From an uncultured Clostridia bacterium (GTDB taxonomy: Bacteria; Bacillota; Clostridia; Christensenellales; CAG-138), in assembly GCA_946631895.1 (NCBI GenBank), contig CAMPAN010000002.1, forward strand, positions 14,946 to 78,945: a stretch of DNA of 64,000 bases, given 5' to 3'. Under the pieces are notes generated by a model, which had not been told where the DNA came from, searched no databases, and saw only the letters and a program-made list of their open reading frames with translations. Below, one piece after another: positions 41,713 through 55,254 of the stretch (position 1 is its first letter; every line of letters begins with the position of its first letter). The translations under genes were made by a program, and so were the position numbers.

Positions 41713-41737
41713 GGATCTGTAAATCCTTCGAAAACAG

Positions 41738-41772
41738 CATCCGCCCCCTTGCATGAAGGGGGCGGATGTTTT
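41738..41772. terminator. Strong bidirectional hairpin terminator between convergent operons
   Basis: 13-bp stem CATCCGCCCCCTT / AAGGGGGCGGATG with loop GCATG. It is flanked by A-run/T-run (AAAACAG ... TTTTCG). Confidence 0.7.
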
Positions 41773-41800
41773 CGTATGTTTTGCCTGCGGAGAACAGCGA

Positions 41801-43396
41801 TCAAAGACTGAAATCCGCGGCGTTGTCTCGCTGATAGGAACACCAGTTGCCGTTTTCGATCAGCTCTTCTCCGGCGAGCAGAACAAGCAGATCGTCGGTT
41901 TCGCCGCTTCGTTCGATGCGCGTTTGCATTGCGGCATAGAACTGCGCCATTTTCCGATGATCGGATGCCGTCCGCGACAGGGACAGCCGTCCGTAGTAGT
42001 TCGAGATGAACAGCGTTGCCGCCGAGATACCGCCGAGCAGGAGCTTTGACAGCATACGGTAGAGACCGGCGTTTGCGATGTGCAGAGACGCCGCAAACAG
42101 ATCCCCCCATATGAGCTCGAACAGGAGCACAAGGAAATACAGCACGATGCTGACGGACAGCGCGACGCCGACGATCCGTTCGCTGAACGACTTTGCACGC
42201 TCGGATTTTTTGCCGGCGCGGAGATGGTACGCAAGCTGATCCTCGATCCACAGCTTTTTGATGCTGTGCGCCGGATACGGTCTGCCGCCGATCGAAACCG
42301 CTCTGAGCGCAGCGACGATCCATGCGTCGTCCGCCTGCGCCGACCACGGAAGCAGCGCAAACGCGCGGATCTCTCTCCCGGCGTACCGTAAATACGCCTG
42401 CACGCGAAGCGTTTCCGCCAGCGTCCGGTATTCGAGATACCGACGGTGACAGGCGATCCGCCTTCCGCGGCGCTGTACGAGCCACGCGGCGGCGAACATC
42501 AGACCGCAGACGAGGATCATCCAGTGCAGCTCGGCTTCGTCGTAGAGTAAAAAGGCGATCGTGATGACCGTGCTGATGATCGCAAGCGCCGCAAGGATGC
42601 TGCGATACTGTTTCGCAAAACGCAGGCTCAGCGCATCCGATGCGGCATACAGCGCTTCCGTGCGGTCGAGCGTTTCGTCCGGTTCCCGGTCCGCCGGAAG
42701 CAGCGGGGCGGGGGAGGGGGAGGCTTTTTCGGCAAGACGGTTGAATTCGTCGGTGCGCCGGAGCATCTCATGATACGCTGCGCGATCGCCGAAAAAGCGC
42801 GTTTCGCCGGCGCATACCGCCGCATCGTCACCCTCGCGCGGCGTTGCAATCTGCAGAACGGCGGTGCTGCCGGACAGCGGGATCCCGTCCTTCGGATCAT
42901 ATGCGTGTTCGAGCGCGAACCGCACCGTTTCGGCGGTTCCGCAGGTGTTTCCGGGAAGCGGCTTTCCGTCCCAGAGCGCAAGCAGAATGTGTGCGTGCGC
43001 CGCGACGCAGATGCCCGCCTGCCGGTAGGCAAAATCCCGATCCGGCAATTCCGGAACGCGTTCCGTCGCGGGGACGACAAAGCAATCCCGCGCGGCGCCG
43101 CAAAACCGGTAAAGCGCGTCCTTTCCGCCGTCCGAGAAATCGTGCTCATATTCCGCCTGCTCCATCGGCAGCGCGGCGATCAGCGGGATCGAAAGCGCTT
43201 GCGCCGCTTCGGCGCAAAGCAGATCCGCGCCCTCCGCAAGGGAATTCAGCATCACGATCTCCGAATGCGGACATTGCGCGCGCAGATCGGAAAGCGCGGA
43301 AACCACGGCGCCGTACAGCACGCCGTAATCCTCGCTTCGGATATTCCGATGTCCCGTGACCCCGACGACGATCGGGATCGTTGCCTGTGCCGCCAT
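41801..43396 (-). CDS. SLOG-superfamily (LOG/DprA/YpsA-like) domain fused to multi-pass membrane module
   Basis: The N-terminus IVVGVTGHR...NSLAEGADLLCAEAAQALSIPLIAALP...ILLALWDG...GNTCGTAETV resembles the Rossmannoid SLOG pattern (GxGxR ... GAD ... GGT.E). The C-terminal half has about 4 hydrophobic helices in two pairs (ILAALAIISTVITIAFLLY / MILVCGLMFAAAWLV; IVGVALSVSIVLYFLVLLF / LLLGGISAATLFISNYY). The start lies 4 nt after the upstream stop. Confidence 0.55.
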   Translation of the reverse strand: MAAQATIPIVVGVTGHRNIRSEDYGVLYGAVVSALSDLRAQCPHSEIVMLNSLAEGADLLCAEAAQALSIPLIAALPMEQAEYEHDFSDGGKDALYRFCGAARDCFVVPATERVPELPDRDFAYRQAGICVAAHAHILLALWDGKPLPGNTCGTAETVRFALEHAYDPKDGIPLSGSTAVLQIATPREGDDAAVCAGETRFFGDRAAYHEMLRRTDEFNRLAEKASPSPAPLLPADREPDETLDRTEALYAASDALSLRFAKQYRSILAALAIISTVITIAFLLYDEAELHWMILVCGLMFAAAWLVQRRGRRIACHRRYLEYRTLAETLRVQAYLRYAGREIRAFALLPWSAQADDAWIVAALRAVSIGGRPYPAHSIKKLWIEDQLAYHLRAGKKSERAKSFSERIVGVALSVSIVLYFLVLLFELIWGDLFAASLHIANAGLYRMLSKLLLGGISAATLFISNYYGRLSLSRTASDHRKMAQFYAAMQTRIERSGETDDLLVLLAGEELIENGNWCSYQRDNAADFSL

Positions 43397-43400
43397 ACGC

Positions 43401-45431
43401 TCAGTTCAGCTTATAGATCCGGAGTCCGTCGAACTTGCGGATCAGCTTCAGCATGCTGTTGAACGGTTTCCAGTCCTTGCTCTGGACTTCTTCGGGCAGT
43501 CCGAGATAATGCCGCGCGATCTCGAGCTCGCCGAAATCGCCGTTCATGCAGAGCTTGTGCTGCCGCATCTGCTCGCGCAGCGCGAAGCGGTTTTTGCCCT
43601 CCGCCGCCGGAACCGTTTCGTACAGATTCCCGGCGGTCCAGCCCATTGCGCGATGCTCTCTGACCCAGCGGGCATGCTCCATCGGCGCAAACGTTGCGAT
43701 CTGATCGGTCGAGAACGAGCGAAGCATCTCAAAGTCGACGGGGCGGTCCGTATAGAAGCAGCCGATCGCGTTCAGGTATTTCGAAAAGCTCTTGACCTGA
43801 TTGATATTGCTCAGCTTGTATTCCAGCGACATGCCGTCAAATTCGCGTTCCAGCGTTTCAGCCGTGATCCGTTCCTCTTCGCCTTCGTGCCGGTAGCGAC
43901 CGTTCAGCGCGACCGCAAAGTCGTACATGTGCAGGAAGCTGCTGCCGGACAGATAGGTATGCTTGCTCTTCCGATCCGCGGTGCGCATGAATGTGGTGAC
44001 AAACAGCGGATAGGCGGTCAGATCGACGATCTTCTCGATGTCCGTGCGGAAGCGCTGCTCCTTCTCCGCCATATCGCTGTATGCCTTGAGCCGCGGCGGC
44101 GCTTCCTCGCTTCCGCTCCGTTCCCATGCGCGATACTCGGCTTCGTATGCGCCGATCTTTTCAGATTCCTCGGCGTCGAAGCAGTAGAGCGCGTGGATCA
44201 TGCCGCGTGCGAAATCGAACTCCGCATCCATCGGATGCAGCTCGGTGCGGGAATTTCTGCCGTATGCGGTGCGGTCCCAGCACTGCAGCTCGTCGCAGAG
44301 CATCAGAAGATACGCAAGCGGATGCAGCTCCGCCTTCAACGGCGCCTTGCGCTTGTCCTTGGATTTATAGAACGCGATCGCAAACTTGAACATGCTGTTG
44401 TGCAGCATGATCGCCGTCAGCGCGTCCAGATGCGCTTCGGTTAGCGCGTCGGCGCCGCGTTCCTCGACAAGCTCCTGATAGAGCCGCGTCGCGCTGAAAT
44501 AAGCATGATCCATGAAGTATCCGAATTCGTTCGGATCGGTCGGCTTCCGTCTGATCGTATCGCAAAGGTATTCCTCGCTGACGCTGTACGCCGCGCCGAG
44601 CCGCTTTTCGATGCCGTACGCCAGAAGCTCTTCCACGGAGCCGAATTCACGCCCGAACAGCTTTGCAAAATGCGCTTTTCCCGCCTCGCCGAGATCGGAC
44701 AGGCAGCCGAGATCGCGATAGGCAAGGAACATGCTGCCAGGTCCGCGCTTTTTGCGGTCCAGTTCAAAGTACGCAAGCACCTGTTCAAAGGGGATCTCGA
44801 AGGGATAGCCGATGTCGTGGAACAGCGAGGTCAGCCCCCAGTATTCCAGGAAGAACGCCGCGGCGCGATGTTCCTCTTTGCCGGGGACAAAGCCGTAGAA
44901 CGTCTGGAACGTCCTGCGAAAGCCCTCGTTCGTTTCATAGATCGCAAGCCCGAGCGCAAAGACGTAGACCGAATGCGAATAGTGATCGCGGTGCTTCATG
45001 AGGAGCGAGCTCGCGTTCGACTCAAATTCCGAAAGCAGTTCGATCATCTTGCTGGACTTTCCGTACTTGCCCATGAACATCTCGAGGAAGCTGTAATAGA
45101 CGGTATACGCGTCCTCGGCGACGCCGGAGTCGATGAAGCTCTCCAGCTCGCGTTCGAGACACAGCCGGTCGATGTCCATCTGCATGTTGTACGGAATCTG
45201 TCCCGCTTTGTAGCTCGTGCCGAGATACTGTCCCGTCTTCGCTTCCTCGTTTGCTTTTTCGGGCGAGAAGCGCAGCCCCTCGCAGCGCTCGTGCAGAAAC
45301 CGCAGCGCCGCGGATTTCAGATCGCTTCCTGCGCGTCCCGCGCCGTACATCGCCGGTTCAAACGGACCGACGTCTGTCTGAAAGCGTTCCCTGTTCGTTT
45401 TTCTCATCTGTTCCAATGCGGTGTATGCCAT
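43401..45431 (-). CDS. HD-domain phosphohydrolase with C-terminal RyR-like domain
   Basis: GGAGGA RBS. HD motifs: HRDHYSHSVYV, LFHDIGYPFE, IMLHN and LMLCDELQCWDR. The C-terminal MEHARWVREHRAMGWTAG fits the bacterial RyR-domain pattern (H..W......GW.YG). Confidence 0.65.
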   Translation of the reverse strand: MAYTALEQMRKTNRERFQTDVGPFEPAMYGAGRAGSDLKSAALRFLHERCEGLRFSPEKANEEAKTGQYLGTSYKAGQIPYNMQMDIDRLCLERELESFIDSGVAEDAYTVYYSFLEMFMGKYGKSSKMIELLSEFESNASSLLMKHRDHYSHSVYVFALGLAIYETNEGFRRTFQTFYGFVPGKEEHRAAAFFLEYWGLTSLFHDIGYPFEIPFEQVLAYFELDRKKRGPGSMFLAYRDLGCLSDLGEAGKAHFAKLFGREFGSVEELLAYGIEKRLGAAYSVSEEYLCDTIRRKPTDPNEFGYFMDHAYFSATRLYQELVEERGADALTEAHLDALTAIMLHNSMFKFAIAFYKSKDKRKAPLKAELHPLAYLLMLCDELQCWDRTAYGRNSRTELHPMDAEFDFARGMIHALYCFDAEESEKIGAYEAEYRAWERSGSEEAPPRLKAYSDMAEKEQRFRTDIEKIVDLTAYPLFVTTFMRTADRKSKHTYLSGSSFLHMYDFAVALNGRYRHEGEEERITAETLEREFDGMSLEYKLSNINQVKSFSKYLNAIGCFYTDRPVDFEMLRSFSTDQIATFAPMEHARWVREHRAMGWTAGNLYETVPAAEGKNRFALREQMRQHKLCMNGDFGELEIARHYLGLPEEVQSKDWKPFNSMLKLIRKFDGLRIYKLN

Positions 45432-45470
45432 TCTTTTTATCCTCCGATCACGATTGATTTCATGAATATG

Positions 45471-48251
45471 TTATTCCACAACCAGTTCAAAGCCGTAACG
45501 GTCGCCGAGCGTACGGATCGCGCCGTCGAGTGCGTGCGAAAGACGCAGACGCCTGAGATTCGGCAGCTTCAGCAGCGGCGAAAGATCGTTGATTTTCGAC
45601 TCGTCAAGCTCCAGCTCCTCAAGACTGCCGAGATTCTGAATGCCCTCGACGGAGTTCACGCTGCCGTTCTGCCGCAGCCTGAGCTGCTTCATTCCCTGCA
45701 GCGTAAAGGCGGGAGAGACGTCGCCGAGAGATCCGCAGAATTCCACGGTCAGCTCCTCAAGCGATTCAAGGTACTGAATGTCGTCGAGCGACTGAAGCGG
45801 CTGCGCATACAGCCTGAGCCGCCTTAGCCCCGTCAGGTTTTTCAAGGCGGACAGATCGGTAAGCCGCGTGCCGGTTTCGACCGGGATGCGCTCGTCCGAA
45901 TCGTTTCTGCAAAGGTACAGCGTCGCCGAACCGCCGTCCCATTCCTCTTCCGTATGGAACTCGTTCTCGTCGAACAGATAATCACCCGCGATACAGAACG
46001 AGCGTACCCGCGCAAGCACGGAGCGCGGCAGCGCGTCAAGCTCGTCGAGCGACAGCAGCGTGAAATCGCTGTCGTCCGGATGCCACGACGTATTCGGATA
46101 CCGGATCTCATAGGTCTCGAAATTGCCCGCTGCGACCAGTTCCTGCGCCTGCTCCCGAAGCTCCGGACGGACGACAAGCTCCTTGCCCCTCAGATGAGAC
46201 AGCGCGCTGATGTCGCGAAGCCCTTCCAGTCCGCTGACGTCAAAGCTGTAGGTATAAGCAGGATCCAACCCCTCGAAGCAGGAAAGATCGGTCATTTCGG
46301 GGAAGCCCTCCAGATAGTATTCCTCCGAAGTGAATGCGGAAAAATCGGGCAGCGTATTCAAGCCGACCAGGTAGCAGGTTTTCAGACGCATTCCGTTGAG
46401 CGCCGACCAGTCGGTCAGGTGCGGGCAGTCTTCCAGATATAAAAACCCGTACGAACAATCCTCGGCTTTCCCGAACCGTTTGATCTTTTCAAGCCCGTCG
46501 AGCGATTGCAAAAGTTTACAGTTTTCTGCAATAAAGTATTCAAAATCCGCATCGTCGCTTAACGTCGTAAGGTCGCGGACGTCGCATTCTTCCAGATCGA
46601 GCTCCGTATTGACGTGCGATGCCATGGAAAGATCGGTGTGAATCGCAGCCCTTACATGCAGAACTTCAATGGGCGTATTCTCCAAATACCGAAGCGCCGG
46701 CGCGGGATCCTTTCCGTTCATGTTCAGATAGATCCAGTAATAGGATTCGATCGCGCCGAAGCCGGAATAATCCGTAACGCCGGAATCCACAAAAATGAAA
46801 CAGATGTTCTGCTTGGTCGGCAGCTCCTTCAAAAAATCCAGATCGGTGTTCTGCGCGGCAAGGTTGCTGAGATAGTAAAGATGCGGCAGCTTGCCGAGGG
46901 CGGAAAGATCGCGGACCGTCACACGATCCGGATACCCGCGCATGCAGAAGATCTCGAGCGCGGTGCAGCCTTCGATCGCGGAAATATCCGCAAGGTCGTT
47001 GACGTCCTGCAAATCGATGGATTTCAGATTTTTCAGGTTTTCGACGCCGTCCAGCCGTCTCAGATTCAGGAAGAACAGGGACAGCGATTCAAGCGCGGTA
47101 CAATCCGAGAGAAATTGCAGGTTGTCGATATCGACGCGCTCGAGGAGCAGCTTCGTAAGCGCAGCGCATTGTCCGAGCCCGGAAAGATCGACGGGCGGAA
47201 GCGTTTGGTTTTCATTTCGGATCGTCAGCCCGGAAAGCATCGGCGGATGGAAGCCGGAAAGATCCGCAGCCCCGTTCAGGTCCAGTTGAAGATCGACGGA
47301 AGACAGCGCCGGACAGTCGGACAGCGGCGAAAAATCGATCGGATCGCCCGTAAACCCGAAATGACCGATCCCGCTCTGACGAACGCCCTCAAGATCGGAA
47401 ACGGAACAGTCGAACACCTCCAGATTGCCGAGGTTCTTTAGGTCGGACAAATCGGGAAGCTGCCCGTCCGCGCGCACGACCGTCAGCATCGAGAGATTCG
47501 TCATCAGGCGCAGGAAGCCGAGATCGTTCCAATGCGCCGTTTCGATCTCGTGTCCGTCCTCGTTGCTGTACCAGTGCGCGCCGTTTTCGTCGTACCCGCG
47601 CGTTGCGTAATAATCCGCACCGACGCGCGCCAAGCCCTGTTCTTCGACCCGGCTTTCGTCGCCGAAGGTATAATGCATCTGATCGCCGAGGATGACCAGC
47701 TCATAGATCCGTTCGATATCCTCCGGCGGAATGCCGTCCGGAATGACCGGCGGGGCGGTCGGCGCAGGGGTCGTTTCGACGTCGACCTCCTGCGCGCCCT
47801 TATTCGCGAGCACGCGCCAGAGTACGATCCCGACGACGGCGGCAAGCACGACCGCCGCCGCGGCGATGATCCATTTCCGCAGCTTCGAGGCGATCGCGAC
47901 GGGCGCTTTCAGCGCGCCGGCAATGCGGTCGACCAGCTCCTCCGCCGTATAGCGGTCGGCGAAGATCGAGTTCCGCGCCATCAATGCGTTTTCGATCAGC
48001 GCGGGCGGCGTCGAACCGTCCAGATTGACCGGAATGACGTCGCAGTTCTGCGCGTCGAGCTGCAGGAACCGGTCAACCTCCGGCGAGGCTTCTTCGAGGT
48101 TCTTCGACAGGAAGAACAGAACGGCATCGTTTTTCTTCGGCGAGTGCTCCGGATCGACGGCGAAGCCTTTGCCTTTCAGCGCGTCGAGGATCGGTCGGAC
48201 GATCGGTTCGTCCGCCGCCGGAAACAGCGGGTACAGCGTGCGTCTTGCCAT
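45471..48251 (-). CDS. TIR-like N-domain - TM - leucine-rich-repeat (internalin-type) protein
   Basis: I placed the start at MARRTLYP (AAGGAG 8 nt upstream). This is where identity with the paralog begins. The N-terminal ~125 aa look flavodoxin/TIR-like (divergent). TM is WIIAAAAVVLAAVVGIVLW, followed by a Pro/Thr linker. More than 25 LRR units follow, of type L..L.DLS.L..L.NL..L.L. Confidence 0.7.
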   Translation of the reverse strand: MARRTLYPLFPAADEPIVRPILDALKGKGFAVDPEHSPKKNDAVLFFLSKNLEEASPEVDRFLQLDAQNCDVIPVNLDGSTPPALIENALMARNSIFADRYTAEELVDRIAGALKAPVAIASKLRKWIIAAAAVVLAAVVGIVLWRVLANKGAQEVDVETTPAPTAPPVIPDGIPPEDIERIYELVILGDQMHYTFGDESRVEEQGLARVGADYYATRGYDENGAHWYSNEDGHEIETAHWNDLGFLRLMTNLSMLTVVRADGQLPDLSDLKNLGNLEVFDCSVSDLEGVRQSGIGHFGFTGDPIDFSPLSDCPALSSVDLQLDLNGAADLSGFHPPMLSGLTIRNENQTLPPVDLSGLGQCAALTKLLLERVDIDNLQFLSDCTALESLSLFFLNLRRLDGVENLKNLKSIDLQDVNDLADISAIEGCTALEIFCMRGYPDRVTVRDLSALGKLPHLYYLSNLAAQNTDLDFLKELPTKQNICFIFVDSGVTDYSGFGAIESYYWIYLNMNGKDPAPALRYLENTPIEVLHVRAAIHTDLSMASHVNTELDLEECDVRDLTTLSDDADFEYFIAENCKLLQSLDGLEKIKRFGKAEDCSYGFLYLEDCPHLTDWSALNGMRLKTCYLVGLNTLPDFSAFTSEEYYLEGFPEMTDLSCFEGLDPAYTYSFDVSGLEGLRDISALSHLRGKELVVRPELREQAQELVAAGNFETYEIRYPNTSWHPDDSDFTLLSLDELDALPRSVLARVRSFCIAGDYLFDENEFHTEEEWDGGSATLYLCRNDSDERIPVETGTRLTDLSALKNLTGLRRLRLYAQPLQSLDDIQYLESLEELTVEFCGSLGDVSPAFTLQGMKQLRLRQNGSVNSVEGIQNLGSLEELELDESKINDLSPLLKLPNLRRLRLSHALDGAIRTLGDRYGFELVVE
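47811..48251 (-). repeat. ~440-bp near-identical repeat, copy 1 (5' end of 45471..48251)
   Basis: Read directly: it aligns at a constant offset of 3906 nt with 51717..52157 and has only a few mismatches near the distal end. The encoded aa 1-~147 are identical. Confidence 0.85.
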
Positions 48252-48290
48252 GAGCGGCTCCTTTCTGTTCATTCGGATGCTTTTTTCGGA

Positions 48291-51200
48291 TCAGTTTTCG
48301 ATTTCAAGCCGGAAGGGGTATTCCTCGCCGAGCGAGGCGATCGCCTGCGGCATGTTGTGCGACACGCACGCCGTTCTCAGATTTTTGAGCGTCAGCAGCG
48401 GCGAGACGTCGGTGAGCTGCGGTGTCCACGAAACCTTGATGTATTCGAGCTCGGGATGCTGTTCGACGAACTGCCGGAACGTTTCGTTCGTGAAATTGCA
48501 GCCGCCCGCATGGATCTCATAGATCTTCACGTTCTTCAACGCGTCCATCCAGAGCGAGCAGTGCGTATTGAACACGTTGATATTCCAGAACGCCTTAAAA
48601 TGCGACAGCACCGCGAATTGGTCGGCGGTGAGGCTCTTCGGCAAATTGTCGATCGAGAGGTTAAAGCCGCGATGCTCTGTATCGGCATAGGATGTGTCGA
48701 TGCCGCTTAGCGGCGACAGATCGGTAATCTGCGTGTTGGCAATGGAGAGATCGGAAAGCCGCGGCAGCCTTTCGATGCCTGCAACGGAGGTGATCGGAAG
48801 CCCCCGCACACTGATGCTTTCGAGCATCGGCAGGTCGAACAGCACGGAAACATCGGTGATCTTCGGGCAGGTATGGATCTGAACTTCTTCCAGATGCGAA
48901 AGCGTCTCGATACCGTCCGGCGATACGATCGGGTTGCAGTGAATCCGGAACCGTTTCAGGTTCGGCAGCCGATGCAGGAACGAGAGATCGGTCAGCGTGC
49001 CTTGCCCGATCGGGGTGCGATTGCCGTCGTCGCGGACCAGCCATCCCCGCGTGCCGTCGGAGCTCCAGTCCTCATCCCACCACTGACCGTCGCCGTTGTA
49101 GAGCCAGTCGCCCGCGATGCAAAGGCTTTGCACCTTTGCAAGTACGGAATCGGGCAGGGCGAGGAAATCCTGCACCTTGACGCCGTCCACGGTGAATTTG
49201 ATCTCACAGTCGTCCGGAAGTGCGCCGAGCGGTGAGAAATCGGTCACGCGGGTCCATTGCAGATCAAAGAACCGGAGCTTCGAAAGCGCCTGCACGCCCT
49301 CCATCGAATCCACCTGCGTTCCCCAGATTTTCAACTCTTCAAGCTCCGGCAGATTCTGCACGCCCTCGATTGAAGTATACGGCGCGTTGGTCAGCTGAAG
49401 CTTTCTGAGGCCCTGCACCGTGAAGGCGGCGGATACGTCCGTAAGGCTTCGGCAGTCCTCCGCGCAAAGCTCCTCCAGATCGGAAAGATACTGAATCCCC
49501 TCCAGCGATTCCAGCGCCTGATTGGTGATGTTCAACCGCTTTAATCCGGTCAGCGCGGAAAGCCCGGAAAGATCCGTCATTGTTCCCGTGGGGATCACTT
49601 CCTGCTCGCCTGTCGCACGGTTGATCAGGGTATAGGTCGGCGGGTTGGTGCTCCAATCAGATTCCCATTCGTATTCGTCCCAGTTGAAGAGCCGGTCGCC
49701 GAGGAGATTCACATCCTGCACGTAGGCAAGCAGCGCGCCCGGCAGCGTATCGATTTCCTCCAGACTGTAGAGCTTGACGTTCGGCTCATACGGACGCCAC
49801 CATTCGTTTGTGTATTCGATATCGACATTGCTGAAATGACTGCTGTCCTCCAGAAGCTGCGCCTGCTGTCCGAGGTGCGCGGGCACGGAAAGCCGGTTGC
49901 CTTTCAGCCCGTTCAGCGGAGAGAGGTCGGTAACGCCGTCCAGGTCGAACAGTTCGATGTCGTACCGCTTGCTCGGATCGAGATTCCGAAGCGGGGACAG
50001 ATCGTCAAGACCGATGATGGATTCCAGACGGATAAACCGGACGGAAAGGTCTTTGAAGGTGGGAATCGAAAACAGTTTCTCGAGATGCAACGAGGAAAGC
50101 GACAGACCCTCAAGCGCGGACCAGTCGGAAAGGCGCGGACAGTCTTCGATCATCAGATCGACGTAGTTGCCTTCCTTGATGCGATTCAGATTCTGAATGC
50201 CGTCCAGCGAGGTCAGGAAATCGGATTCGGTGATTTTCACATTGGTAACGTCGTACGCGGGAAGCCCTTCGAGCGAAGAAACGCCGTGCAGGGTCAGTTC
50301 GTTTCTGACGGTCGGGAACCGGGAATAATCCACGGGAATATTGCTTCCGCGATTGCCGCCGTTGCGATTCCAGAACTCAAAACGGTTGACGACCGCGTCC
50401 TTCACATACGGAAGCGCGCTGCCGTTGCGATCGGTGATGTTCAAAAAGTCATAATATGTGATCGCGGCAAGACCGGACCAGTCGTCGACCTCGGAGACGC
50501 CGAAACAGAAATAATTCTTGTTGACGATGTCGGCAAGATAATCCACGTTGTTCGGACCTGCGCCGTATAACTCCATGGTTCTGAGACGCGGCAGCCTGAC
50601 GACCGGCGACACGTCATTGAGAGCAAACGACTCGGATATATGGATGCGGGACAAGCTCGTGCAGCTTTCAAGCGCGGAAATGTCGGTCAGGTTCCGAAGC
50701 CCGTTACACTCGATATCGGAAAGCGAGGTATGGTCTTCCAGACCGTGCAGCGAGCGGATCGAATTCATCCACTCGAGCCGCAGCCTTGTGAGCTTCGTTG
50801 CGCCGGTCAGGAAGGAAAGATCCGGCGTACGGAAATCCTGTCCCTCGAATTCCGTCAGTCCGGCGCAGCTCGAAAGCGCGTTGAGGTCGGTCAGTTCAAA
50901 GCAACTGTCGATGTTGATCCTGTTAAGCCGGGTATGGTTTTCCAAGCCGGAAAGTGATGTCAGCGCATGCAGTTCGTTGAGATAAAGCTCGGTCACCGCC
51001 GTCGCGTTTGCAAGGCAGGAAAGATCCTGAAGCCCCAGATCGTTGAGCATGACCCGCTTCAGCTTGACGCAGGCATGAAGTCCGGAAGCATCGCGGATCC
51101 CCTGACTGCCGCTGCCCGTCAGGCGCAGTTCCTCGAGCGCAGGCGGTCCGAAGGCGGAGAGGTCCGCCGGAAGCTCGCCGTACAGTTCGATATAGGCGCC

Positions 51201-52157
51201 TTTCAGCTTCTGACAGCTGTTCAGCGGCGAGAAATCCATCGCTTCGTTCTCATATTGGAAATGACCGATGTTTGCGCCTGCAAGACCGTTGAGATCGGAA
51301 AGATTACAGTCCGCGATATGTACGTAATCCAGCTTTTTCAGCCCGGACAGATCTGGCAGCGTTCCCTCGACGCAGATGACGTCCAGAAACTGCAGATTGG
51401 TCATGTAGCGCAGGAAATTGAGGTCCTCCCATCTGTACAGGGAAATCTCCTCGGCAGTCTCGTTATCCAGCCAGTGCGTGCCGGAATCGTCCCGGATGCG
51501 GTTCGCATAGTGTTCCGCATCGACCTTGGCAAAGTTCGCCTTTCGGACCCATTCTTCGTTGCCGTAAAGGACTTCCATCCGATCGCCGATGATAAACAGC
51601 TGATGTATGCGCGCAAGATCCTCGGGAGAGATTCCGGACGCCGTCGGAACGGTCGGCGCGGCGGTTGGGGCGGGCGTCGTTTCGACAGCCGTCTCTTCGG
51701 CTTTTCTGCTGCCGAGCACACGCCAGAGCACGATCCCGACCACGGCGGCAAGCACGACCGCCGCCGCGGCGATGATCCATTTCCGCAGCTTCGAGGCGAT
51801 CGCGACGGGCGCTTTCAGCGCGCCGGCAATGCGGTCGACCAGCTCCTCCGCCGTATAGCGGTCGGCGAAGATCGAGTTCCGCGCCATCAATGCGTTTTCG
51901 ATCAGCGCGGGCGGCGTCGAACCGTCCAGATTGACCGGAATGACGTCGCAGTTCTGCGCGTCGAGCTGCAGGAACCGGTCAACCTCCGGCGAGGCTTCTT
52001 CGAGGTTCTTCGACAGGAAGAACAGAACGGCATCGTTTTTCTTCGGCGAGTGCTCCGGATCGACGGCGAAGCCTTTGCCTTTCAGCGCGTCGAGGATCGG
52101 TCGGACGATCGGTTCGTCCGCCGCCGGAAACAGCGGGTACAGCGTGCGTCTTGCCAT
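48291..52157 (-). CDS. TIR-like N-domain - TM - very long leucine-rich-repeat protein
   Basis: The N-terminal 147 aa are the same as in the downstream paralog. They are followed by ~1100 aa of LRR units (e.g. LTDLSGLSALTGLKRLNITNQALESLEGIQYLSDLEEL). Confidence 0.7.
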   Translation of the reverse strand: MARRTLYPLFPAADEPIVRPILDALKGKGFAVDPEHSPKKNDAVLFFLSKNLEEASPEVDRFLQLDAQNCDVIPVNLDGSTPPALIENALMARNSIFADRYTAEELVDRIAGALKAPVAIASKLRKWIIAAAAVVLAAVVGIVLWRVLGSRKAEETAVETTPAPTAAPTVPTASGISPEDLARIHQLFIIGDRMEVLYGNEEWVRKANFAKVDAEHYANRIRDDSGTHWLDNETAEEISLYRWEDLNFLRYMTNLQFLDVICVEGTLPDLSGLKKLDYVHIADCNLSDLNGLAGANIGHFQYENEAMDFSPLNSCQKLKGAYIELYGELPADLSAFGPPALEELRLTGSGSQGIRDASGLHACVKLKRVMLNDLGLQDLSCLANATAVTELYLNELHALTSLSGLENHTRLNRINIDSCFELTDLNALSSCAGLTEFEGQDFRTPDLSFLTGATKLTRLRLEWMNSIRSLHGLEDHTSLSDIECNGLRNLTDISALESCTSLSRIHISESFALNDVSPVVRLPRLRTMELYGAGPNNVDYLADIVNKNYFCFGVSEVDDWSGLAAITYYDFLNITDRNGSALPYVKDAVVNRFEFWNRNGGNRGSNIPVDYSRFPTVRNELTLHGVSSLEGLPAYDVTNVKITESDFLTSLDGIQNLNRIKEGNYVDLMIEDCPRLSDWSALEGLSLSSLHLEKLFSIPTFKDLSVRFIRLESIIGLDDLSPLRNLDPSKRYDIELFDLDGVTDLSPLNGLKGNRLSVPAHLGQQAQLLEDSSHFSNVDIEYTNEWWRPYEPNVKLYSLEEIDTLPGALLAYVQDVNLLGDRLFNWDEYEWESDWSTNPPTYTLINRATGEQEVIPTGTMTDLSGLSALTGLKRLNITNQALESLEGIQYLSDLEELCAEDCRSLTDVSAAFTVQGLRKLQLTNAPYTSIEGVQNLPELEELKIWGTQVDSMEGVQALSKLRFFDLQWTRVTDFSPLGALPDDCEIKFTVDGVKVQDFLALPDSVLAKVQSLCIAGDWLYNGDGQWWDEDWSSDGTRGWLVRDDGNRTPIGQGTLTDLSFLHRLPNLKRFRIHCNPIVSPDGIETLSHLEEVQIHTCPKITDVSVLFDLPMLESISVRGLPITSVAGIERLPRLSDLSIANTQITDLSPLSGIDTSYADTEHRGFNLSIDNLPKSLTADQFAVLSHFKAFWNINVFNTHCSLWMDALKNVKIYEIHAGGCNFTNETFRQFVEQHPELEYIKVSWTPQLTDVSPLLTLKNLRTACVSHNMPQAIASLGEEYPFRLEIEN
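51717..52157 (-). repeat. ~440-bp near-identical repeat, copy 2 (5' end of 48291..52157)
   Basis: See copy 1. Confidence 0.85.
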
Positions 52158-52182
52158 GGAATGCGTTCTCCTTTTCTCGGTT

Positions 52183-53334
52183 TTATGGGACCAGAACGAC
52201 TGTGAATTGTTTGTCCCCGCTCCATTTCAGGGGCAGCATGTCCGCGCTGACCGTAACGGTGCGAAGCGACGGAAGCGATGCAAGGACGGTCAGATCGCGT
52301 ACGTTCGTGTGTTCTATGTGCAGCGTCGCAAGGTTTGTCAGTCCGTTCAGCGCCGAAAGGTCGGAAATCGCGCTGCCGGAAAGATACAGCTCCTCGAGAA
52401 GAACGAGACCGTTCAGCGGCGAAAGGTCCTTTACGGGTTGACCGATCAGCGCAAGCCGTTCGAGAAATACCATCGTGCCGATCACGGACAGGTCGGAAAC
52501 CTGACCGGTAACGACCTTCGCCCCGTTGACGCGGATGGTTCTGTCCTCGTCAATGCGGACGTCATCCGTCTTTTCGAGGGTCATGTGCCCGCAAAAATAC
52601 AGCTCTTTGACCGCTGCAAGCTCCGGGCGCAGAATGTCGCCTTGCTTTTTGCCGAGGATGCCGCGAACGGCGTTCTCCTGCTGGGAATCGGGGAACCTGA
52701 CCGGAAACAGCTCCGGGTCGATCGTCGGCGTCGGGGAAGGATCGGAAGTCGGCGTCGGGGAGGGCGTCGGAGAGGACGAAACGTGCGGCGTCGGCGTCGG
52801 TTTGTTCGGCGGATCAAAGAATCCGTCGGCGGCGGCGACGAGTCCGATCACCGAACCCGCAAGCAGCAGCGCCGTGGCGGCAAGTCCGATCCATTCTCCC
52901 CGAACGGAATCGGTCCATCTGCGATAGAACGAACGCTTCAGCGCTTTCCACGAAAGGATCTCCGCAGCCTCCGCCTTTGCCTGCGGATTCGGAAGCAGCA
53001 GCTTTTTCCAAGCGTCGTTCGGCGCAGTCGATTCCAGCGGAACGAGCAGGATCGGCTTTTTGAGCGCCGCTGCGGTCTTGATTTCGGAAAAGCAGTTCGG
53101 CGAAGCAAGCGCGGTCTCCGATACAAAGAACAGAACGGCGGCGCATCCACGCATATGCAGTTCGATGTTCTTCGGCCAGTCGCTGCCGGCGGGAATGCCC
53201 TCGTCGTACCAGAGCCGGAGCTTCCGGTCGTTCAGTACGGAAATGATCTCCAGCACCCGGTCCGAATCGCGATGCGAATAGCTGATGAATACATAGGGGC
53301 GCTTGCCCTCGTACGGCTTGAAATACACGCTCAT
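52183..53334 (-). CDS. Canonical TIR domain - TM - PT linker - LRR protein
   Basis: YVFISYSHRDSDRV...LRLWYDEGIPAGSDW...VLFFVSETALASPNCFSEIKTA matches bacterial TIR_2-type motifs, including the conserved Glu region. TM is WIGLAATALLLAGSVIGLVAAA, followed by a PTPTPHVSSSPTPSPTPTSDPSPTPT linker and about 7 LRR units. The start has an ATGA overlap with the upstream gene. Confidence 0.8.
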   Translation of the reverse strand: MSVYFKPYEGKRPYVFISYSHRDSDRVLEIISVLNDRKLRLWYDEGIPAGSDWPKNIELHMRGCAAVLFFVSETALASPNCFSEIKTAAALKKPILLVPLESTAPNDAWKKLLLPNPQAKAEAAEILSWKALKRSFYRRWTDSVRGEWIGLAATALLLAGSVIGLVAAADGFFDPPNKPTPTPHVSSSPTPSPTPTSDPSPTPTIDPELFPVRFPDSQQENAVRGILGKKQGDILRPELAAVKELYFCGHMTLEKTDDVRIDEDRTIRVNGAKVVTGQVSDLSVIGTMVFLERLALIGQPVKDLSPLNGLVLLEELYLSGSAISDLSALNGLTNLATLHIEHTNVRDLTVLASLPSLRTVTVSADMLPLKWSGDKQFTVVLVP

Positions 53335-54173
53335 TCGGAATCACCTCCGAACAGCTCGACGGTATAATCCGCAAGCTCCGGATACCGGGACGCATTCTTT
53401 GCCGCTGTCTGTGAAAGCACGACCGTTTCAAGATTGGGAAGCAGCGAAAGATCGGAAAGCGTACCCGGAAGCTCGTCTCCGGAAAACCGCAGCGCAGTGA
53501 TCTCCCGCAGCCGCTCCTCCGTAAGCGGACCGCCGCCGAGCGCGCTGCGCACCGTTTCACGCACGGTTTCATCCGAGAAAACGACGGTATCCGTCTCAGC
53601 CGGCGGAGAGGGGATCACCCTGCGCAGCAGCCAAAAGAGAACGCCGCATGCCGACAGAAGGATCGCCGCTGCGATCAGCGCGGCTGCAAGTCGCTTTATC
53701 GGGCTGCGTTTGTCACGGATCGGAACGCCGATCAGGTCCTGCGAAAAGCCGTCCGCATGCAGAAGCGCGTGTTCCGCGTCGGACGCCTGCGCGCCGCGGG
53801 GGAGCCGGATTTCGGCGGCGTCTGCATGCAGCCCGATGGACAGCCCGCTGTCTCCGCCGTCCGTATTGAGACAGACGATCTTCTGTCCGCTGCGCTGGCA
53901 CGCCAGAAGGCGGCTTTTGGCTGCCGGATCGTTCCGGAACGCCTCGTCCAGATAGACTGCCGTCAGCGTCGCCGCGAGCATGCGTTCGTTCATCAACGCG
54001 CGCACGTTCCGGTCCGTTCCGGATTCCGTATCAAAAAAAACGCGTACGCCGCGCGCCTGCAAACGGCGCAGCAAGGCAGACGCCTTTTTGCCGCTCGCTT
54101 TCGAGAAGCAAAGGTGCAGGTACGGTTCGTTTCCGGTGTAGGGGGCGTATGCTTTGATCGGATCCTTCATCAT
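53331..54173 (-). CDS. Divergent TIR-like domain - TM - short LRR protein
   Basis: I placed the start at MMKDP (GAAAGG RBS). The listed TTG extension is unsupported. The N-domain has a similar beta-alpha pattern (YLHLCFS...GVRVFFD...TAVYLDE). TM is LAAALIAAAILLSACGVLFWLL. The tail LSDLSLLPNLETVVLS is LRR-like. Confidence 0.5.
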   Translation of the reverse strand: MMKDPIKAYAPYTGNEPYLHLCFSKASGKKASALLRRLQARGVRVFFDTESGTDRNVRALMNERMLAATLTAVYLDEAFRNDPAAKSRLLACQRSGQKIVCLNTDGGDSGLSIGLHADAAEIRLPRGAQASDAEHALLHADGFSQDLIGVPIRDKRSPIKRLAAALIAAAILLSACGVLFWLLRRVIPSPPAETDTVVFSDETVRETVRSALGGGPLTEERLREITALRFSGDELPGTLSDLSLLPNLETVVLSQTAAKNASRYPELADYTVELFGGDSE

Positions 54174-54236
54174 CGGCAAACCTTTCGGTGTTTGACAGAA
54201 ACGGTATTCGTACAAAAATCATACCGTGATAAATAT

Positions 54237-54264
54237 ATTATATCATCCTGACGCAAAAAAGCAA
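54237..54264 (-). promoter_or_regulatory. Candidate promoter of the TIR-LRR/HD/SLOG operon
   Basis: On the minus strand: TTGCTT (54264-54259), a 16-nt spacer, then TATAAT (54242-54237). It lies ~65 nt upstream of the first ATG. Confidence 0.4.
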
Positions 54265-54537
54265 GGAATAACGGGGAATCTGCGAAAATGCCGCGGGGCT
54301 TCCGACGGCGGTCCTTCCCGGGATCCGCAGAATCCTTTGCCGCGCGGAATCGGCGGTTTTTTTATTCCCGCAGATCTGTACGGAAGCGGCGTTCCGGAGA
54401 AAGCCTGTCCGCCCGTGCGGGTACTTTCTGCGGACGGTCTCAAAATGCACGGAATCCGAAAAAAGTTTTTCGGGTTTTAATTTCGTTTTAGGAAGCGCCT
54501 GTATGATAAAGCCATCAAGGAAAGCGAGGATACGCAT

Positions 54538-55242
54538 ATGGAAAGCGTACAGGCACCGATCACCGTGATGCAGCGGGTCGAGTGGAAATACATTTTAAGC
54601 GCGGAGCAGACGGATTTCTTCTGCGCGCGATTGAAGGGACACATGGAGCCGGACGCGTACGGGCTCACGACGATCCAGTCGCTCTATTACGATACGCCGG
54701 ACAGACGGCTTGTCCGGACCTCGATCGAAAAGCCGGAATTCAAGGAAAAGATCCGGCTGCGCGCCTACGGACGTGCGACGAACGAAACGCCGGTGTTCCT
54801 GGAGCTCAAGCGCAAGGCGTTTGGGATCGTCTACAAGCGCCGCGTGCAGGCGACGGTCCCGGAGGTGACGCGGTTTTTTGCGGGAGAGCCGGTCCTCGAC
54901 GAAGACGGGCAGATCGATCGCGAGATCACCTATTTCCGCGATTATTACAGAACGCTCGAGCCCGCGTGCATGATCCTCTATGACCGCACCGCGTACTACG
55001 AGCCGGACGGAGACCTCAGACTCACGATCGACCGCAATCCGCGCTATCGGCTCGATGCGCTGTCCTTCGATCACGCGCCGGTCGGGATCCCGCTGCTTGC
55101 GCCGGGCGACACGATCCTTGAAATCAAGGTGCAGGACACGATCCCGCTGTGGCTGGTCCGCATCCTCTCCGAGGGAAAGATCCGCCGCGGAAGCCTCAGC
55201 AAGTACGGCGAAGCATACCGGCGCTCGACGCCGATCCGCTGA
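54538..55242 (+). CDS. VTC-domain (polyphosphate-polymerase-like, CYTH fold) protein
   Basis: RVEWKYIL, IRLRAY, FLELKRKAFGIVYKRR, REITYF..YY..LEP, LRLTIDRN and ILEIKVQDTIPLWL fit the bacterial VTC-domain family as I remember it. Confidence 0.65.
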   Translation: MESVQAPITVMQRVEWKYILSAEQTDFFCARLKGHMEPDAYGLTTIQSLYYDTPDRRLVRTSIEKPEFKEKIRLRAYGRATNETPVFLELKRKAFGIVYKRRVQATVPEVTRFFAGEPVLDEDGQIDREITYFRDYYRTLEPACMILYDRTAYYEPDGDLRLTIDRNPRYRLDALSFDHAPVGIPLLAPGDTILEIKVQDTIPLWLVRILSEGKIRRGSLSKYGEAYRRSTPIR

Positions 55243-55254
55243 AAGGAGTTATCT

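Follow-up and report, generated by a model that had tools for sequence, protein, structure and literature searches.

The operon and its transcription signals

The genes described here lie within a stretch of 64,000 nucleotides (the window) from Clostridia of a gut or rumen metagenome. There are six open reading frames, all on the minus strand (Table 1), and the source scaffold carries identical gene calls. From g1 to g6 they are separated by a 4-nt overlap and then by gaps of 25, 18 or 39, 39 and 4 nt; these places and spacings agree with the six-gene operon that had been proposed in a sequence-only reading of the same DNA. Other conflict-type genes are found close by within the window.

The ATG of g1, at 54173, is preceded by GAAAGG. 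The promoter that had been proposed for the operon has a perfect TATAAT at 54242-54237 with a TG extension (an extended -10 element), while its -35 element, TTGCTT at 54264-54259, matches the consensus at only three of six positions. It is because of this weak match that the site is missing from the list produced by our consensus scanner. Since, in addition, the region shows no excess of promoter-like sites (four found, 3.6 expected), a role as the operon promoter is plausible rather than demonstrated. At the other end of the operon the predicted terminator hairpin was found with its 13-bp stem and T-rich tail, beginning 32 nt past the g6 stop codon. The same hairpin could also serve the convergent gene at 39613..41712.

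Table 1. Genes, domains and sequence features of the operon (all on the minus strand).
Feature	Position	Strand	Description
Promoter-like site	54237..54264	-	TTGCTT, 16-nt spacer, TGaTATAAT; read directly from the sequence
g1, 280 aa	53331..54173	-	TIR-like domain without catalytic Glu, TM helix, short ectodomain
g2, 383 aa	52183..53334	-	TIR, one TM helix, Pro/Thr/Ser-rich linker, internalin-type LRRs
g2 TIR domain, residues 15-102	53029-53292	-	Pfam TIR_2, E=6.3e-17
g2 Glu84 codon	53083..53085	-	Motif SPNCFSEI; of 31 g2-type sequences, at least 90% have Glu here
g3, 1288 aa	48291..52157	-	TIR-like domain without catalytic Glu, TM helix, LRR ectodomain
g4, 926 aa	45471..48251	-	TIR-like and TM module as in g3; LRR matches
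Tract of 416 nt shared by g3 and g4	51742..52157 and 47836-48251	-	TIR-like domain and TM helix
g5, 676 aa	43401..45431	-	Soluble protein, unannotated family
g5 HD-like domain, residues ~96-400	44232-45146	-	All-alpha
g5 RyR/R12 domain, residues ~575-676	43404-43709	-	C-terminal; PF02026
g6, 531 aa	41801..43396	-	SLOG, then two SLATT-type 2TM units
g6 SLOG domain, residues 1-235	42692-43396	-	Cytoplasmic (predicted)
g6 SLATT-type 2TM units, residues 250-531	41804-42649	-	Two units
Intrinsic-terminator-like hairpin	41738..41768	-	13-pair stem, 9 G-C pairs, 5-nt loop, T-rich tail

One likely TIR enzyme and three TIR-like partners

Four of the proteins had been read as TIR or TIR-like, and profiles do recognise all four N-terminal domains, but the catalytic Glu is kept in g2 alone, so that the set is better described as one likely enzyme and three TIR-like partners. 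Judged by the TIR 'WCxxEL' motif, Glu84 of g2 stands at the column where TIR NADases carry their catalytic Glu; in a profile alignment to the g2-type TIR, g1 has Ser at this column and both g3 and g4 have Arg. This makes g2 the likely sole candidate for a TIR enzyme among g1 to g4. Its TM helix (residues 149-167) is followed by a linker that is 48% Pro/Thr/Ser and by LRRs at about residues 277-365, which match Pfam LRR_4 (E=2.6e-10) and internalin-type LRR profiles of NCBIfam. PADLOC returned for g2 weak ThsB-like matches at most (E no lower than 2.8e-5), and an HMM of the g2-type TIR, applied to 12 Thoeris TIRs, gave its top scores on those associated with SLOG.

The g1 protein falls below the cut-off of Pfam TIR_2 (E=3.5e-4), and its N-domain family aligns to the g2 TIR family with a probability of 99.2% (hhalign, E=1.5e-19); the corresponding values for the g3 N-domain family are 94.6% and E=6.4e-8, with E=0.0035 for the g3 N-domain alone against TIR_2. 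In g1, a TM helix at residues 162-180 leads into a short ectodomain, about 100 aa long, that carries LRR-like repeats. The g3 protein has its TIR-like domain at residues 1-115, its TM helix at about 127-145 and an LRR ectodomain of about 1150 aa that matches LRR_4 (E=2e-27), LRR_EndoS (E=1e-26) and internalin_A (E=7e-37), and the LRRs named in the earlier reading are thus confirmed by both Pfam and NCBIfam profiles. The ectodomain of g4, of about 790 aa, is unlike that of g3. An alternative start at 48272 would lengthen g4 to 933 aa; the gene call on the source scaffold gives 926 aa. Within their shared tract g3 and g4 have no mismatch in 416 nt, after which they diverge abruptly (44% identity past residue 148); the tract was seen in a repeat search too, and its end, just 3' of the TM helix, marks a gene-conversion or module-swap boundary.

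All four proteins have a single TM helix by hydropathy and none has an N-terminal hydrophobic signal sequence, as had been claimed; the linker that follows the helix is 18-28% Pro/Thr/Ser in g1, g3 and g4. The charge on the N side of the helix is the more positive in g1 and g2, and the flanks are near neutral in g3 and g4. Taken with the C-terminal position of the LRRs, the single helix and the absence of a signal peptide make it likely that the TIR domains are cytoplasmic and the LRRs outside the cell, a topology that is predicted solely from hydropathy and the charges beside the helix.

The g5 and g6 families and the conservation of the cassette

The g6 protein was correctly read as a SLOG domain joined to about four TM helices, three of them clear and one weaker, in a positive-inside pattern. 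Among 12 members of its family, 11 match Pfam DUF4231 (best E=1.3e-6), which we take to be a member of the SLATT clan, and eight match YAcAr, a SLOG family (best E=1.3e-4); NCBIfam places SLATT_3 at residues 248-335 and SLATT_4 at 442-496 of g6 itself.

The g5 protein gave no direct match in Pfam, NCBIfam, PADLOC or a PDB sequence search. Its close homologs number more than 1848 and are 66-97% identical across families, a level of conservation that is unusually high for a defence gene, and its family comprises 1206 cluster representatives. An HD::RyR architecture had been proposed, and its RyR half is supported through relatives: 34 of 55 distant ones match Pfam RyR (best E=1.2e-12), as does the L013 variant (E=2.7e-14), and their RyR region maps to g5 residues 585-672 in hhalign. 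The HD half stands on a conserved H..HD..D residue pattern and on weak matches only, with no support for an HD fold from Pfam, PDB sequence search or Foldseek; a mixed middle region separates the two domains. In the close family the RyR residues H586, W589, H625 and D653 are invariant or nearly so. Their equivalents in P0317, a canonical relative, are spaced +3, +25 and +42 in the alignment, which is the spacing of H75, W78, H100 and D117, the ligand and catalytic residues of RyDEP (PMC13232231). Phage proteins with RyR domains bind or cleave TIR-made 2'/3'cADPR (2026 preprint, PMC13232231).

A g6 relative is encoded in 504 species genomes; the relatives that we retrieved all come from gut or rumen Clostridia, and all from uncultured MAGs or metagenomes. 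At 38 g6 loci flanked by 9 kb or more on either side, g5-type, g2-type, g1-type and long-LRR genes occur together in 21, a g5-type gene in 30 and g6 alone in four; these four gene families are the only ones that recur. Across the Clostridia MAG loci the genes take three orders, and the flanks in our window have no match in those of the relative loci. Thus, the six gene types are co-conserved as a portable cassette, and the association of the SLOG-TM and HD genes with the TIR-LRR genes that had been predicted is found. Surface proteins with LRRs are widespread among Firmicutes, and g1 to g4 might be ordinary surface adhesins that stand by chance beside unrelated g5 and g6 genes, but co-occurrence at 21 of 38 loci, which belong to different species, show three gene orders and have unrelated flanks, goes beyond chance. 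This extremely improbable explanation is effectively refuted by the co-occurrence data, and it also conflicts with fusions and TIR adjacency in an independent set of loci. In that set, built on g5 relatives, a TIR gene is present at 17 of 25 well-flanked metagenome loci and directly adjacent in 14; the nine TIR neighbours that were checked all match Pfam TIR_2, and their partner domains include Sel1/TPR, BspA-type LRR and FtsK. Of 55 distant g5 relatives, 20 have a C-terminal extension that is matched by a g6 SLOG HMM (E down to 3e-18). These links, together with the SLATT membrane effector module, are left unaccounted for if no signal is made and the g2 TIR is itself an NAD+-depleting effector with g5 and g6 as accessory or independent genes. 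TIR domains do act in that way in several systems, e.g. CBASS and short-Argonaute, and the operon has a single catalytic TIR, but we regard such an arrangement as improbable.

The earlier reading had given HD-RyR the place of a side arm, and this did not hold: no gene of the set is better conserved than g5, which in a much wider family is also the commonest partner of TIR genes. An unlikely, though by no means negligible, alternative makes g5 an off-switch that resets the system and sets its threshold, leaving the g6 SLOG-SLATT protein as the sole effector; with the same reserve, its RyR domain would act on a cADPR isomer like phage RyDEP, opening the ribose-ribose bond, and its HD-like domain would degrade the product. 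The HD-RyR-SLOG fusions hold two candidate ligand-binding domains, one of which could be catalytic, and may be likened to the self-limiting effectors of type III CRISPR systems, which degrade cyclic oligoadenylate. In addition, g5 retains the RyDEP glycosidase dyad (H586, D653), the adenine-stacking Trp and the phosphate-binding His (PMC13232231). However, of eight phage RyR proteins assayed, six bind the signal without cleaving it (PMC13232231), so the retained dyad falls short of proving catalysis by g5. Moreover, at 25 of 80 loci a TIR gene and an HD-RyR gene stand together while the flank lacks SLOG and SLATT, as is also the case for the gene pair in MT836912.1, and in such pairs HD-RyR is the only candidate effector.

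A candidate surface-sensing pathway of the Thoeris kind

PADLOC recognised no system at the operon. The flanks of 29 full loci hold mostly housekeeping genes with no common context, no obvious defence island and two serine recombinases; Mur ligases, an alanine racemase and a teichoic-acid glycerophosphotransferase are among the flanking genes. The cassette was found on no plasmid, on one unverified contig among phage records and on one contig in IMG/VR. Compared within one set of relative loci, identity is 82-96% to g5, 58-75% to g6, about 50-80% to g2 and about 40-55% to g1 and g3, rates that would fit fast sensors and slower readers. The identities are also mosaic (at L007, 96% for g5 and 63% for g6; g6 is nearest to L001 and L002), and this, with the unrelated contexts, indicates horizontal movement and shuffling of the cassette.

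Much of this could suit a non-immune outside-in pathway, in which the LRRs would sense a surface cue, for example polymers of plant or host origin, other cells nearby or the state of the cell wall, and the TIR product would perhaps be an ordinary second messenger, acting on ion flux by way of g6 and on nucleotide metabolism by way of g5. The housekeeping flanks with their cell-wall genes, the strong conservation and uniform length of the g5 and g6 families, the near absence of the system from plasmids and phages, the restriction of the retrieved relatives to gut or rumen Clostridia and the use of internalin-type LRRs, which are typical surface-binding modules, all point that way. We nevertheless think it rather unlikely, for TIR, SLOG, SLATT and RyR have each been tied so far, by experiment or prediction, to phage-host conflict. 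The cassette moves and is shuffled, further conflict-type genes lie near the operon, and the TIR partners of g5-type genes bear highly varied sensor domains, with the sensors evolving fastest; varied, fastest-evolving sensor domains are hallmarks of immune receptors.

The explanation that we favour, with somewhat better than even confidence, is a multi-component TIR nucleotide-signalling pathway of the Thoeris kind with membrane-spanning sensors, most likely for anti-phage or other conflict, a role that is inferred. In this pathway g1 to g4 would form a hetero-oligomeric membrane receptor whose LRR ectodomains, very unequal in size (about 100 to 1150 aa), point towards the cell wall and the exterior, with the Glu-less g1, g3 and g4 as scaffold and specificity subunits. 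A surface event, which could be the adsorption of a phage, some other ligand or damage to the envelope, would cluster or rearrange the ectodomains. TIR enzymes require oligomerisation for activity, so such clustering would assemble the TIR layer and turn on g2, which would convert NAD+ to a cyclic-ADPR-type signal. The SLOG domain of g6 and the RyR domain of g5 are of kinds known to bind signals of this type and may be its readers here: SLOG would gate or oligomerise the double SLATT module, so that the membrane would lose its integrity and growth would stop, and the RyR/R12 domain would control the HD-like, presumptively metal-dependent hydrolase or cleave the signal itself. The pathway proposed earlier keeps its parts list, its likely topology and its co-conservation; of its four TIR proteins one is a likely enzyme, its HD assignment is unconfirmed, and the side-arm role of g5 does not hold.

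The pairing of TIR with 'SLOG and 4TM' was predicted before as a Thoeris type (bioRxiv 10.64898/2025.12.03.692087, Tables S1/S2), and in this respect the novelty claimed for the operon does not stand; the layout as a whole, with its TM-LRR TIRs and host HD-RyR partner, did not turn up in the literature that we searched. Two 'SLOG and 4TM' Thoeris candidates gave no defence in E. coli; the SLOG domain of ThsA reads 3'cADPR, and the TIR and SLATT pair of type VII signals with cADPR (bioRxiv 10.64898/2025.12.03.692087). The layout of the operon, if our reading is true, would represent Thoeris-type signalling with sensors at the cell surface.

TIR-like LRR proteins and the layout of the operon

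The six genes, g1 to g6, follow one another on the minus strand from 54173 to 41801, and the source record (ENA ERZ28612947, scaffold_320, a 108-kb metagenome scaffold) carries the identical six gene calls. In gene order the spacings are a 4-nt overlap followed by gaps of 25, 18 or 39, 39 and 4 nt. The ORFs, the gene calls and inspection of the sequence bear out the operon as the sequence-only reading had described it, with its six genes, its spacings and a terminator-like hairpin. A promoter upstream of g1 is plausible at most, because promoter-like sites are not enriched across the region. An Rfam search of positions 41000-55000 returned no family.

Coordinates of operon features and of candidate conflict-type genes in the window
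Feature	Coordinates	Strand	Remarks
g1	53331-54173	minus	TIR-like domain, TM helix, LRRs
g2	52183-53334	minus	TIR domain, TM helix, LRRs
g3	48291-52157	minus	TIR-like domain, TM helix, LRRs
g4	45471-48251	minus	TIR-like domain, TM helix, LRRs
g5	43401-45431	minus	HD-like + RyR
g6	41801-43396	minus	SLOG + SLATT 2TM units
Extended -10 TGaTATAAT	54245-54237	minus	upstream of g1; perfect match
-35 TTGCTT		minus	upstream of g1; weak, 3/6
GAAAGG		minus	7 nt before the g1 ATG at 54173
Terminator-like hairpin	41768-41738	minus	after g6; 13-pair stem and T-rich tail
WYL-domain regulator	32222-33277
NT5C nucleotidase	within 32222-41712		gene call on source scaffold
AAA+ ATPase	34050-36089		weak IetA-like matches
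Four paralogous ORFs, 249-293 aa	36263-39592		29-39% mutual identity; no Pfam match
699-aa protein	39613-41712		DnaB_C, NACHT-like and PolIII-alpha-NTPase-like matches
Trypsin-like protease, GDSGGP	107-985	plus	by eye
Several coiled-coil proteins	1-22000 block	plus	by eye
Hsp70/actin-like ATPase	4555-6261	plus	by eye; no match in PDB sequence search
HerA/DUF87-like ATPase	9829-12339	plus	PDB 4d2i, E=8.5e-6
HExxH peptidase-like ORF	12164-13201	plus	by eye
Sigma-factor-like + zinc-finger pair	14633-16037	plus	by eye
RCC1-repeat-like protein	16151-18967	plus	by eye

On the promoter side of the operon lies a divergent cluster (54538-58158) encoding VTC-domain, DUF4956 and Cthe_2159 carbohydrate-binding proteins, which is matched in no related locus. 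Candidate conflict genes lie on the g6 side, namely genes for a WYL regulator, an AAA ATPase, a DnaB_C/NACHT-like ATPase and an NT5C nucleotidase, together with four paralogous ORFs; a low-GC island of 22 kb that encodes a HerA-like ATPase also counts among them. The genes of 32222-41712 may form another defence-type module. The island, positions 1-22000, has 39-47% G+C against 53-62% over most of the remaining window and carries all its long ORFs on the plus strand; it may have arrived by horizontal transfer as a conflict system, or be an artefact of chimeric assembly.

The g2 protein combines a Pfam TIR_2 domain (E=6e-17) with LRR_4 repeats. The TIR_2 match of g1 is weak (E=3.5e-4), and the N-domain common to g3 and g4 matches at E=0.0035. 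When N-domain profiles were compared with hhalign, using 19-43 relatives per domain gathered from related loci, g1 matched g2 with 99.2% probability (E=1.5e-19) and g3/g4 matched g2 with 94.6% probability (E=6e-8). By these profile-profile matches the N-domains of all four proteins are TIR-fold relatives. Among the four N-domain families, only that of g2 has retained E84, the Glu in the 'SPNCxSEI' motif, which we take, from the WCxxEL motif, to be the catalytic position of TIR NADases; the same column holds Ser in g1 and Arg in g3/g4. Four TIR or TIR-like domains had been proposed from the sequence: the predicted fold stands in all four, but only g2 is a candidate catalytic TIR, the Glu being absent from g1, g3 and g4.

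Past the TIR-like domain, each of g1-g4 has one hydrophobic helix, then a Pro/Thr/Ser-rich stretch and internalin-type LRRs, and none has an N-terminal signal sequence. A folded N-domain of 120-160 residues with no signal peptide is expected to be retained in the cytoplasm, and a TIR enzyme requires NAD+; for these two reasons a topology with the TIR inside and the LRRs outside is likely. The charges flanking the TM helix, N side versus C side, are +5 versus +2 in g1 and +4 versus +1 in g2, and the flanks in g3/g4 are nearly neutral.

The first 416 nt of g3 (51742-52157) and g4 (47836-48251), which encode the TIR-like domain and TM helix (148 aa), align with zero mismatches. Beyond this tract identity falls to 44%, and the divergence starts abruptly at the predicted ectodomain, just outside the membrane. 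Such a pattern indicates recent gene conversion, or ectodomain swapping on a constant, putatively cytoplasmic module.

The predicted SLOG-SLATT protein g6 and the HD-like-RyR protein g5

Proteins of the g6 family vary little in length, at ~530 aa, and occur widely among Clostridia MAGs. DUF4231, presumably a member of the SLATT clan, matches 11 of 12 family members (best E=1.3e-6), PF14015 matches are precomputed for many homologs, and the NCBIfam models SLATT_3 and SLATT_4 match two separate stretches of g6, the window protein's own SLATT scores falling just under the cut-off. The C-terminal part of g6 contains 2TM units that match SLATT-clan models. The SLOG family YAcAr matches 8 of the 12 members (E ~1e-4, below the gathering score), and the g6-type domain fused to relatives of g5 gives sub-threshold matches to DNA_processg_A (7 members) and YAcAr (4 members), so that the sub-threshold SLOG matches of the g6 family and of the fused domain are mutually consistent. 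From the distribution of charges, the SLOG domain and the connecting regions would be cytoplasmic, with two helical hairpins in the membrane. With the family matches, this supports the architecture first proposed for g6, here a probable SLOG domain with about four TM helices. A PDB sequence search with the g6 profile found nothing meaningful.

DprA itself has a Rossmann-like domain that belongs to the SLOG superfamily. A DprA-type DNA-processing domain at the N terminus of g6 is nevertheless unlikely: the other domains of DprA are missing from g6, the best matches are to the YpsA-related YAcAr family, and the domain is fused to membrane modules in g6 and to HD-RyR proteins in relatives.

The g5 protein has no direct match in Pfam, NCBIfam, PADLOC or PDB, and PDB sequence searches with g5 alone and with its profile found nothing meaningful. 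Its close family, in which no protein is annotated, has more than 1848 members, each of ~676 aa, with identities of 66-97%, and a profile run against 1.84 billion cluster representatives returned 1206 relatives. Since the isolated C-terminus of g5 has no RyR match in Pfam, the RyR assignment is made through relatives. Pfam RyR (PF02026) matches 34 of 55 distant relatives (best E=1.2e-12), and a shorter g5 variant (locus L013), beside g6 in other loci, matches at E=2.7e-14 (53.6 bits, cut-off 27.4). The RyR region of the relatives was aligned by hhalign to g5 residues 585-672, with two insertions.

In a study of viral proteins only, Lopez Rivera et al. [quoted passage not shown] H586, W589 and D653 do not vary among close relatives of g5, and H625 occurs in 35 of 37 of them. 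In P0317, a canonical g5 relative, the corresponding positions have the spacing of RyDEP (+3, +25 and +42) and align to these four residues of g5. From the spacing in the canonical relatives we infer that g5 H586/W589/H625/D653 correspond to RyDEP H75/W78/H100/D117; the RyR domain of g5 is probably a cADPR-isomer pocket.

The N-terminal half of g5 is all-alpha. Between 52 and 55 of 56 diverse relatives retain H150/H153, H205-D206, D308-H309, H344 and D380, a set that follows the classic H...HD...D pattern of HD proteins. Pfam HD matches the isolated fragment at E=0.016, with weak HD matches in 6 of the 55 distant relatives. Against PDB, Foldseek with the whole g5 model placed HD-superfamily members on top (PPX C-terminal domain 3rf0, E=0.06; also PDE2/10 and HD-GYP), none of them significant; a model of the HD domain only gave nothing below E=0.9, and the whole model had no significant match in BFVD. 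Both models, whole and HD-only, are of acceptable confidence (pTM 0.84 and 0.81), and the predicted structures neither confirm nor refute the HD and RyR folds. Hence the name 'HD-like + RyR' for g5: we regard the RyR part as established, through sequence families, and the HD part as probable.

Linkage of the six genes and the wider HD-RyR family

Relatives of g6 occur in 504 GTDB species genomes, and the best 80 of the loci are all from gut or rumen Clostridia MAGs; every relative is from an uncultured organism. Linkage was counted in the 38 loci that have 9 kb or more on each side. A g5-type gene is present in 30 of these and g6 stands alone in four; 21 hold g5-type, g2-type and g1-type genes plus one or more long LRR genes. 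The genes are arranged in three orders: g1-g2-g3(-g4)-g5-g6, g5-g1-g2-g4-g6 and g5-g1-g2-g6-g4. All-against-all clustering of the ORFs of related loci returned g5-type, g2-type, g1-type and long LRR genes as the only recurring families. The genes that flank the window's operon have no match in any related locus, and the flanks of 29 full loci contain 125 different Pfam families in 136 ORFs, mostly housekeeping, with two serine recombinases. With the full set in so many loci, in three orders and between unrelated flanks, g5 and g6 are conserved with TIR-LRR genes in relatives, the association on which the original proposal depended. Co-occurrence, gene orders and recurrence of families rule out chance adjacency of the LRR genes with g5 and g6.

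Identity to the related locus L007 is mosaic (g5 96%, g3 86%, g2 81%, g1 78%, g6 63%), and g6 is closest to loci L001/L002 (75, 74%) and g4 to L002 (83%). These identities imply recombination between cassette versions, and the gene set behaves as a self-contained cassette with shuffled parts. Across related loci the predicted sensors g1-g4 diverge most and g5 least, rates that fit an immune system. A physiological surface-sensing pathway with no immune function is a serious rival, because no PADLOC system is recognised, the cassettes of relatives lie outside obvious defence islands in the 29 full loci, few mobile elements in the collections covered carry the cassette, and g5 shows a degree of conservation unusual in a defence gene. 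Against such a pathway count the candidate conflict genes on the g6 side within the window.

An HMM of the g6 SLOG domain matches the C-terminal extension of 20 of the 55 distant relatives of g5, the lowest E being 3e-18, so HD-RyR-SLOG fusion proteins exist. HD-like-RyR-SLOG fusions of ~720-930 aa are found in the representatives P0310, P0317, P0345 and others and in loci L081-L087; other relatives (P0356, P0367, P0371, P0375) carry an unannotated N-terminal extension of 300-350 aa. From 80 metagenome loci fetched with proteins of the HD-RyR-SLOG type as seeds, 25 had at least 2.5 kb on both sides. A TIR gene is present in 17 of these 25, directly adjacent in 14, and a TIR gene or a SLOG/SLATT partner in 19. 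Nine TIR neighbours were checked and all nine match Pfam TIR_2; they are mostly soluble, with Sel1/TPR, BspA-type LRR, FtsK/SpoIIIE or Listeria-Bacteroides repeat partner domains. This adjacency and the variety of partner domains identify HD-RyR, on domain matches, as the constant partner of TIR proteins with variable sensor domains, and the TM-LRR proteins of the window as one branch of those predicted sensors. The HD-RyR protein, cast as a side arm when the operon was first read, is central instead: it is the constant TIR partner in the wider family, and cADPR isomers probably have their pocket in its RyR domain.

At locus L137 (4220-6127, minus strand), a TIR fused to a complete FtsK/SpoIIIE translocase (alpha, motor, gamma) adjoins an HD-RyR gene and may be a DNA-entry sensor. 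The sole phage-collection match is an HD-RyR (774 aa) and TIR (703 aa) pair on the unverified contig L162 (MT836912.1, 'UNVERIFIED Bacteriophage sp.', 8.3 kb).

A proposed pathway and its place among known systems

Observed are the domain composition, the linkage, the fusions and a catalytic Glu in one gene only; beyond these, we propose that g1-g4 would form a membrane receptor with its LRRs outside. A surface event would assemble the TIR layer and activate g2, which would produce a cADPR-type molecule. The SLOG domain of g6 would read this molecule and the double SLATT module would be opened or assembled, while the RyR domain of g5 would read or cleave it and thereby control the HD-like hydrolase. 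For g5 we prefer an effector role, because HD-RyR must be both sensor and effector in many two-gene loci that consist of TIR and HD-RyR. An off-switch role is alive as a rival, in that g5 retains the RyDEP-type glycosidase dyad; those same two-gene loci, where HD-RyR is the sole candidate effector, argue against it.

Our fullest reading is a tentative one that we consider possible but somewhat improbable as a whole: such operons encode bacterial outside-in immune receptors, in which surface LRRs detect an attacker, phage or otherwise, before or during entry and activate a TIR enzyme whose cADPR-type product is read by a host RyR protein and a SLOG-gated membrane module. If true, this would be the first transmembrane Toll-type pattern-recognition receptor in bacteria, and would bring to prokaryotes a TIR-cADPR-RyR-domain axis, a possible ancestor of cADPR control of animal ryanodine receptors. 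Thoeris and the other bacterial TIR systems in the literature covered sense infection inside the cell; a TIR tethered to surface LRRs would couple surface recognition to nucleotide immune signalling, a Toll-like logic. The operon also points to a large, conserved, unannotated host family (HD-like + RyR) of more than 1200 clusters at 50% identity that is a regular TIR partner. Since phage RyR domains bind or cleave cADPR isomers (PMC13232231), this family would be the missing host-side use of the RyR domain and would make the link between TIR product and RyR testable. Such a test could start from the catalytic Glu of g2 (E84), the four residues of the putative RyR pocket in g5, and g6 as the candidate SLOG-4TM effector.

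TIR/Thoeris-type signalling is proposed here for the whole operon, and the parts list and logic of the sequence-only reading appear largely right; what changes is the number of catalytic TIRs (one, not four), the place of HD-RyR, which is no side arm, and the newness of the TIR and SLOG-4TM link. As in Thoeris, there is a TIR protein with the catalytic Glu (g2), and by domain type g6 and g5 add co-encoded SLOG and RyR domains, both of types with published cADPR-isomer binding. PADLOC-DB 2.0 recognised no system: g2 had weak ThsB-like matches, the best at E=2.8e-5, and the remaining five proteins had no match; against Pfam ThsB_TIR, g2 scores 18.7 bits (cut-off 21.2).

Thoeris types V-XI were defined by Yirmiya et al. 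(bioRxiv 10.64898/2025.12.03.692087), in whose searched text and supplementary material the terms RyR, HD domain and LRR are absent. Type III, as that preprint cites it from van den Berg et al. 2024, has several TIRs and a SLOG effector; like the window, it co-encodes four TIR(-like) proteins with a SLOG-containing effector. Among 12 Thoeris TIRs, the g2-type TIR HMM gives its top scores to type III TIR1/TIR4. Against the type III model NCBIfam NF058526 ThcB4, g2 scores E=0.091 and 11.6 bits (cut-off 220), which places it outside that model. The type III Pseudomonas TIRs are not described in the literature covered as membrane LRR proteins; in the window, three of the four TIR-like domains are without the catalytic Glu, its SLOG is fused to a 4TM SLATT module and an HD-RyR protein is added.

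The same preprint lists a putative '4TM SLOG' effector in Table S1, and in Table S2 two such systems, which gave no defence in E. coli; a link between TIR and SLOG-4TM, which had been taken as new, was thus already predicted. In this 'SLOG and 4TM' type a TIR gene adjoins an effector with the g6 architecture, SLOG plus four TM helices, and its two listed TIRs are among the best matches of the g2-type HMM. It differs in having two genes, in Streptomyces and Nitrospira, with no LRR, TM-anchored TIR or RyR partner mentioned, and its effector is likened to g6 by description only. In type VII, a TIR with the SLATT effector ThsH and canonical cADPR as signal (bioRxiv 10.64898/2025.12.03.692087), a TIR-made nucleotide would trigger a SLATT membrane effector, as we also propose here; ThsH, however, is described as a SLATT-domain protein with no SLOG mentioned, the TIR is not described as membrane-anchored, and there is no RyR protein.

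RyDEP and the other viral RyR proteins share with g5 the Pfam family PF02026 (through g5 relatives), and the four ligand and catalytic residues of RyDEP have putative counterparts in g5. They are small phage counter-defence glycosidases or sponges, whereas g5 is a 676-aa host protein with its RyR after an HD-like domain and beside TIR genes, an architecture and neighbourhood by which a role as host-side reader or regulator is likely.

Animal Toll-like receptors share with g1-g4, by the topology predicted here, an LRR ectodomain, one TM helix, a cytoplasmic TIR and paralogous receptors that possibly hetero-oligomerise. In place of the type I order of LRR, TM and C-terminal TIR, g1-g4 have an N-terminal TIR, a type II orientation, no signal peptide and bacterial internalin-type LRRs, and downstream of them we propose small-molecule signalling to SLOG and RyR readers rather than adaptor recruitment. 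The likeness is one of analogy, not membership, because there is no evidence of common descent for the whole architecture. Neither RyR-domain proteins of hosts in TIR operons nor TIR-TM-LRR proteins were the subject of any paper found in a literature search. Relative to the literature searched, the new elements are the predicted membrane-spanning LRR-TIR sensor set and its host-side HD-RyR partner family.
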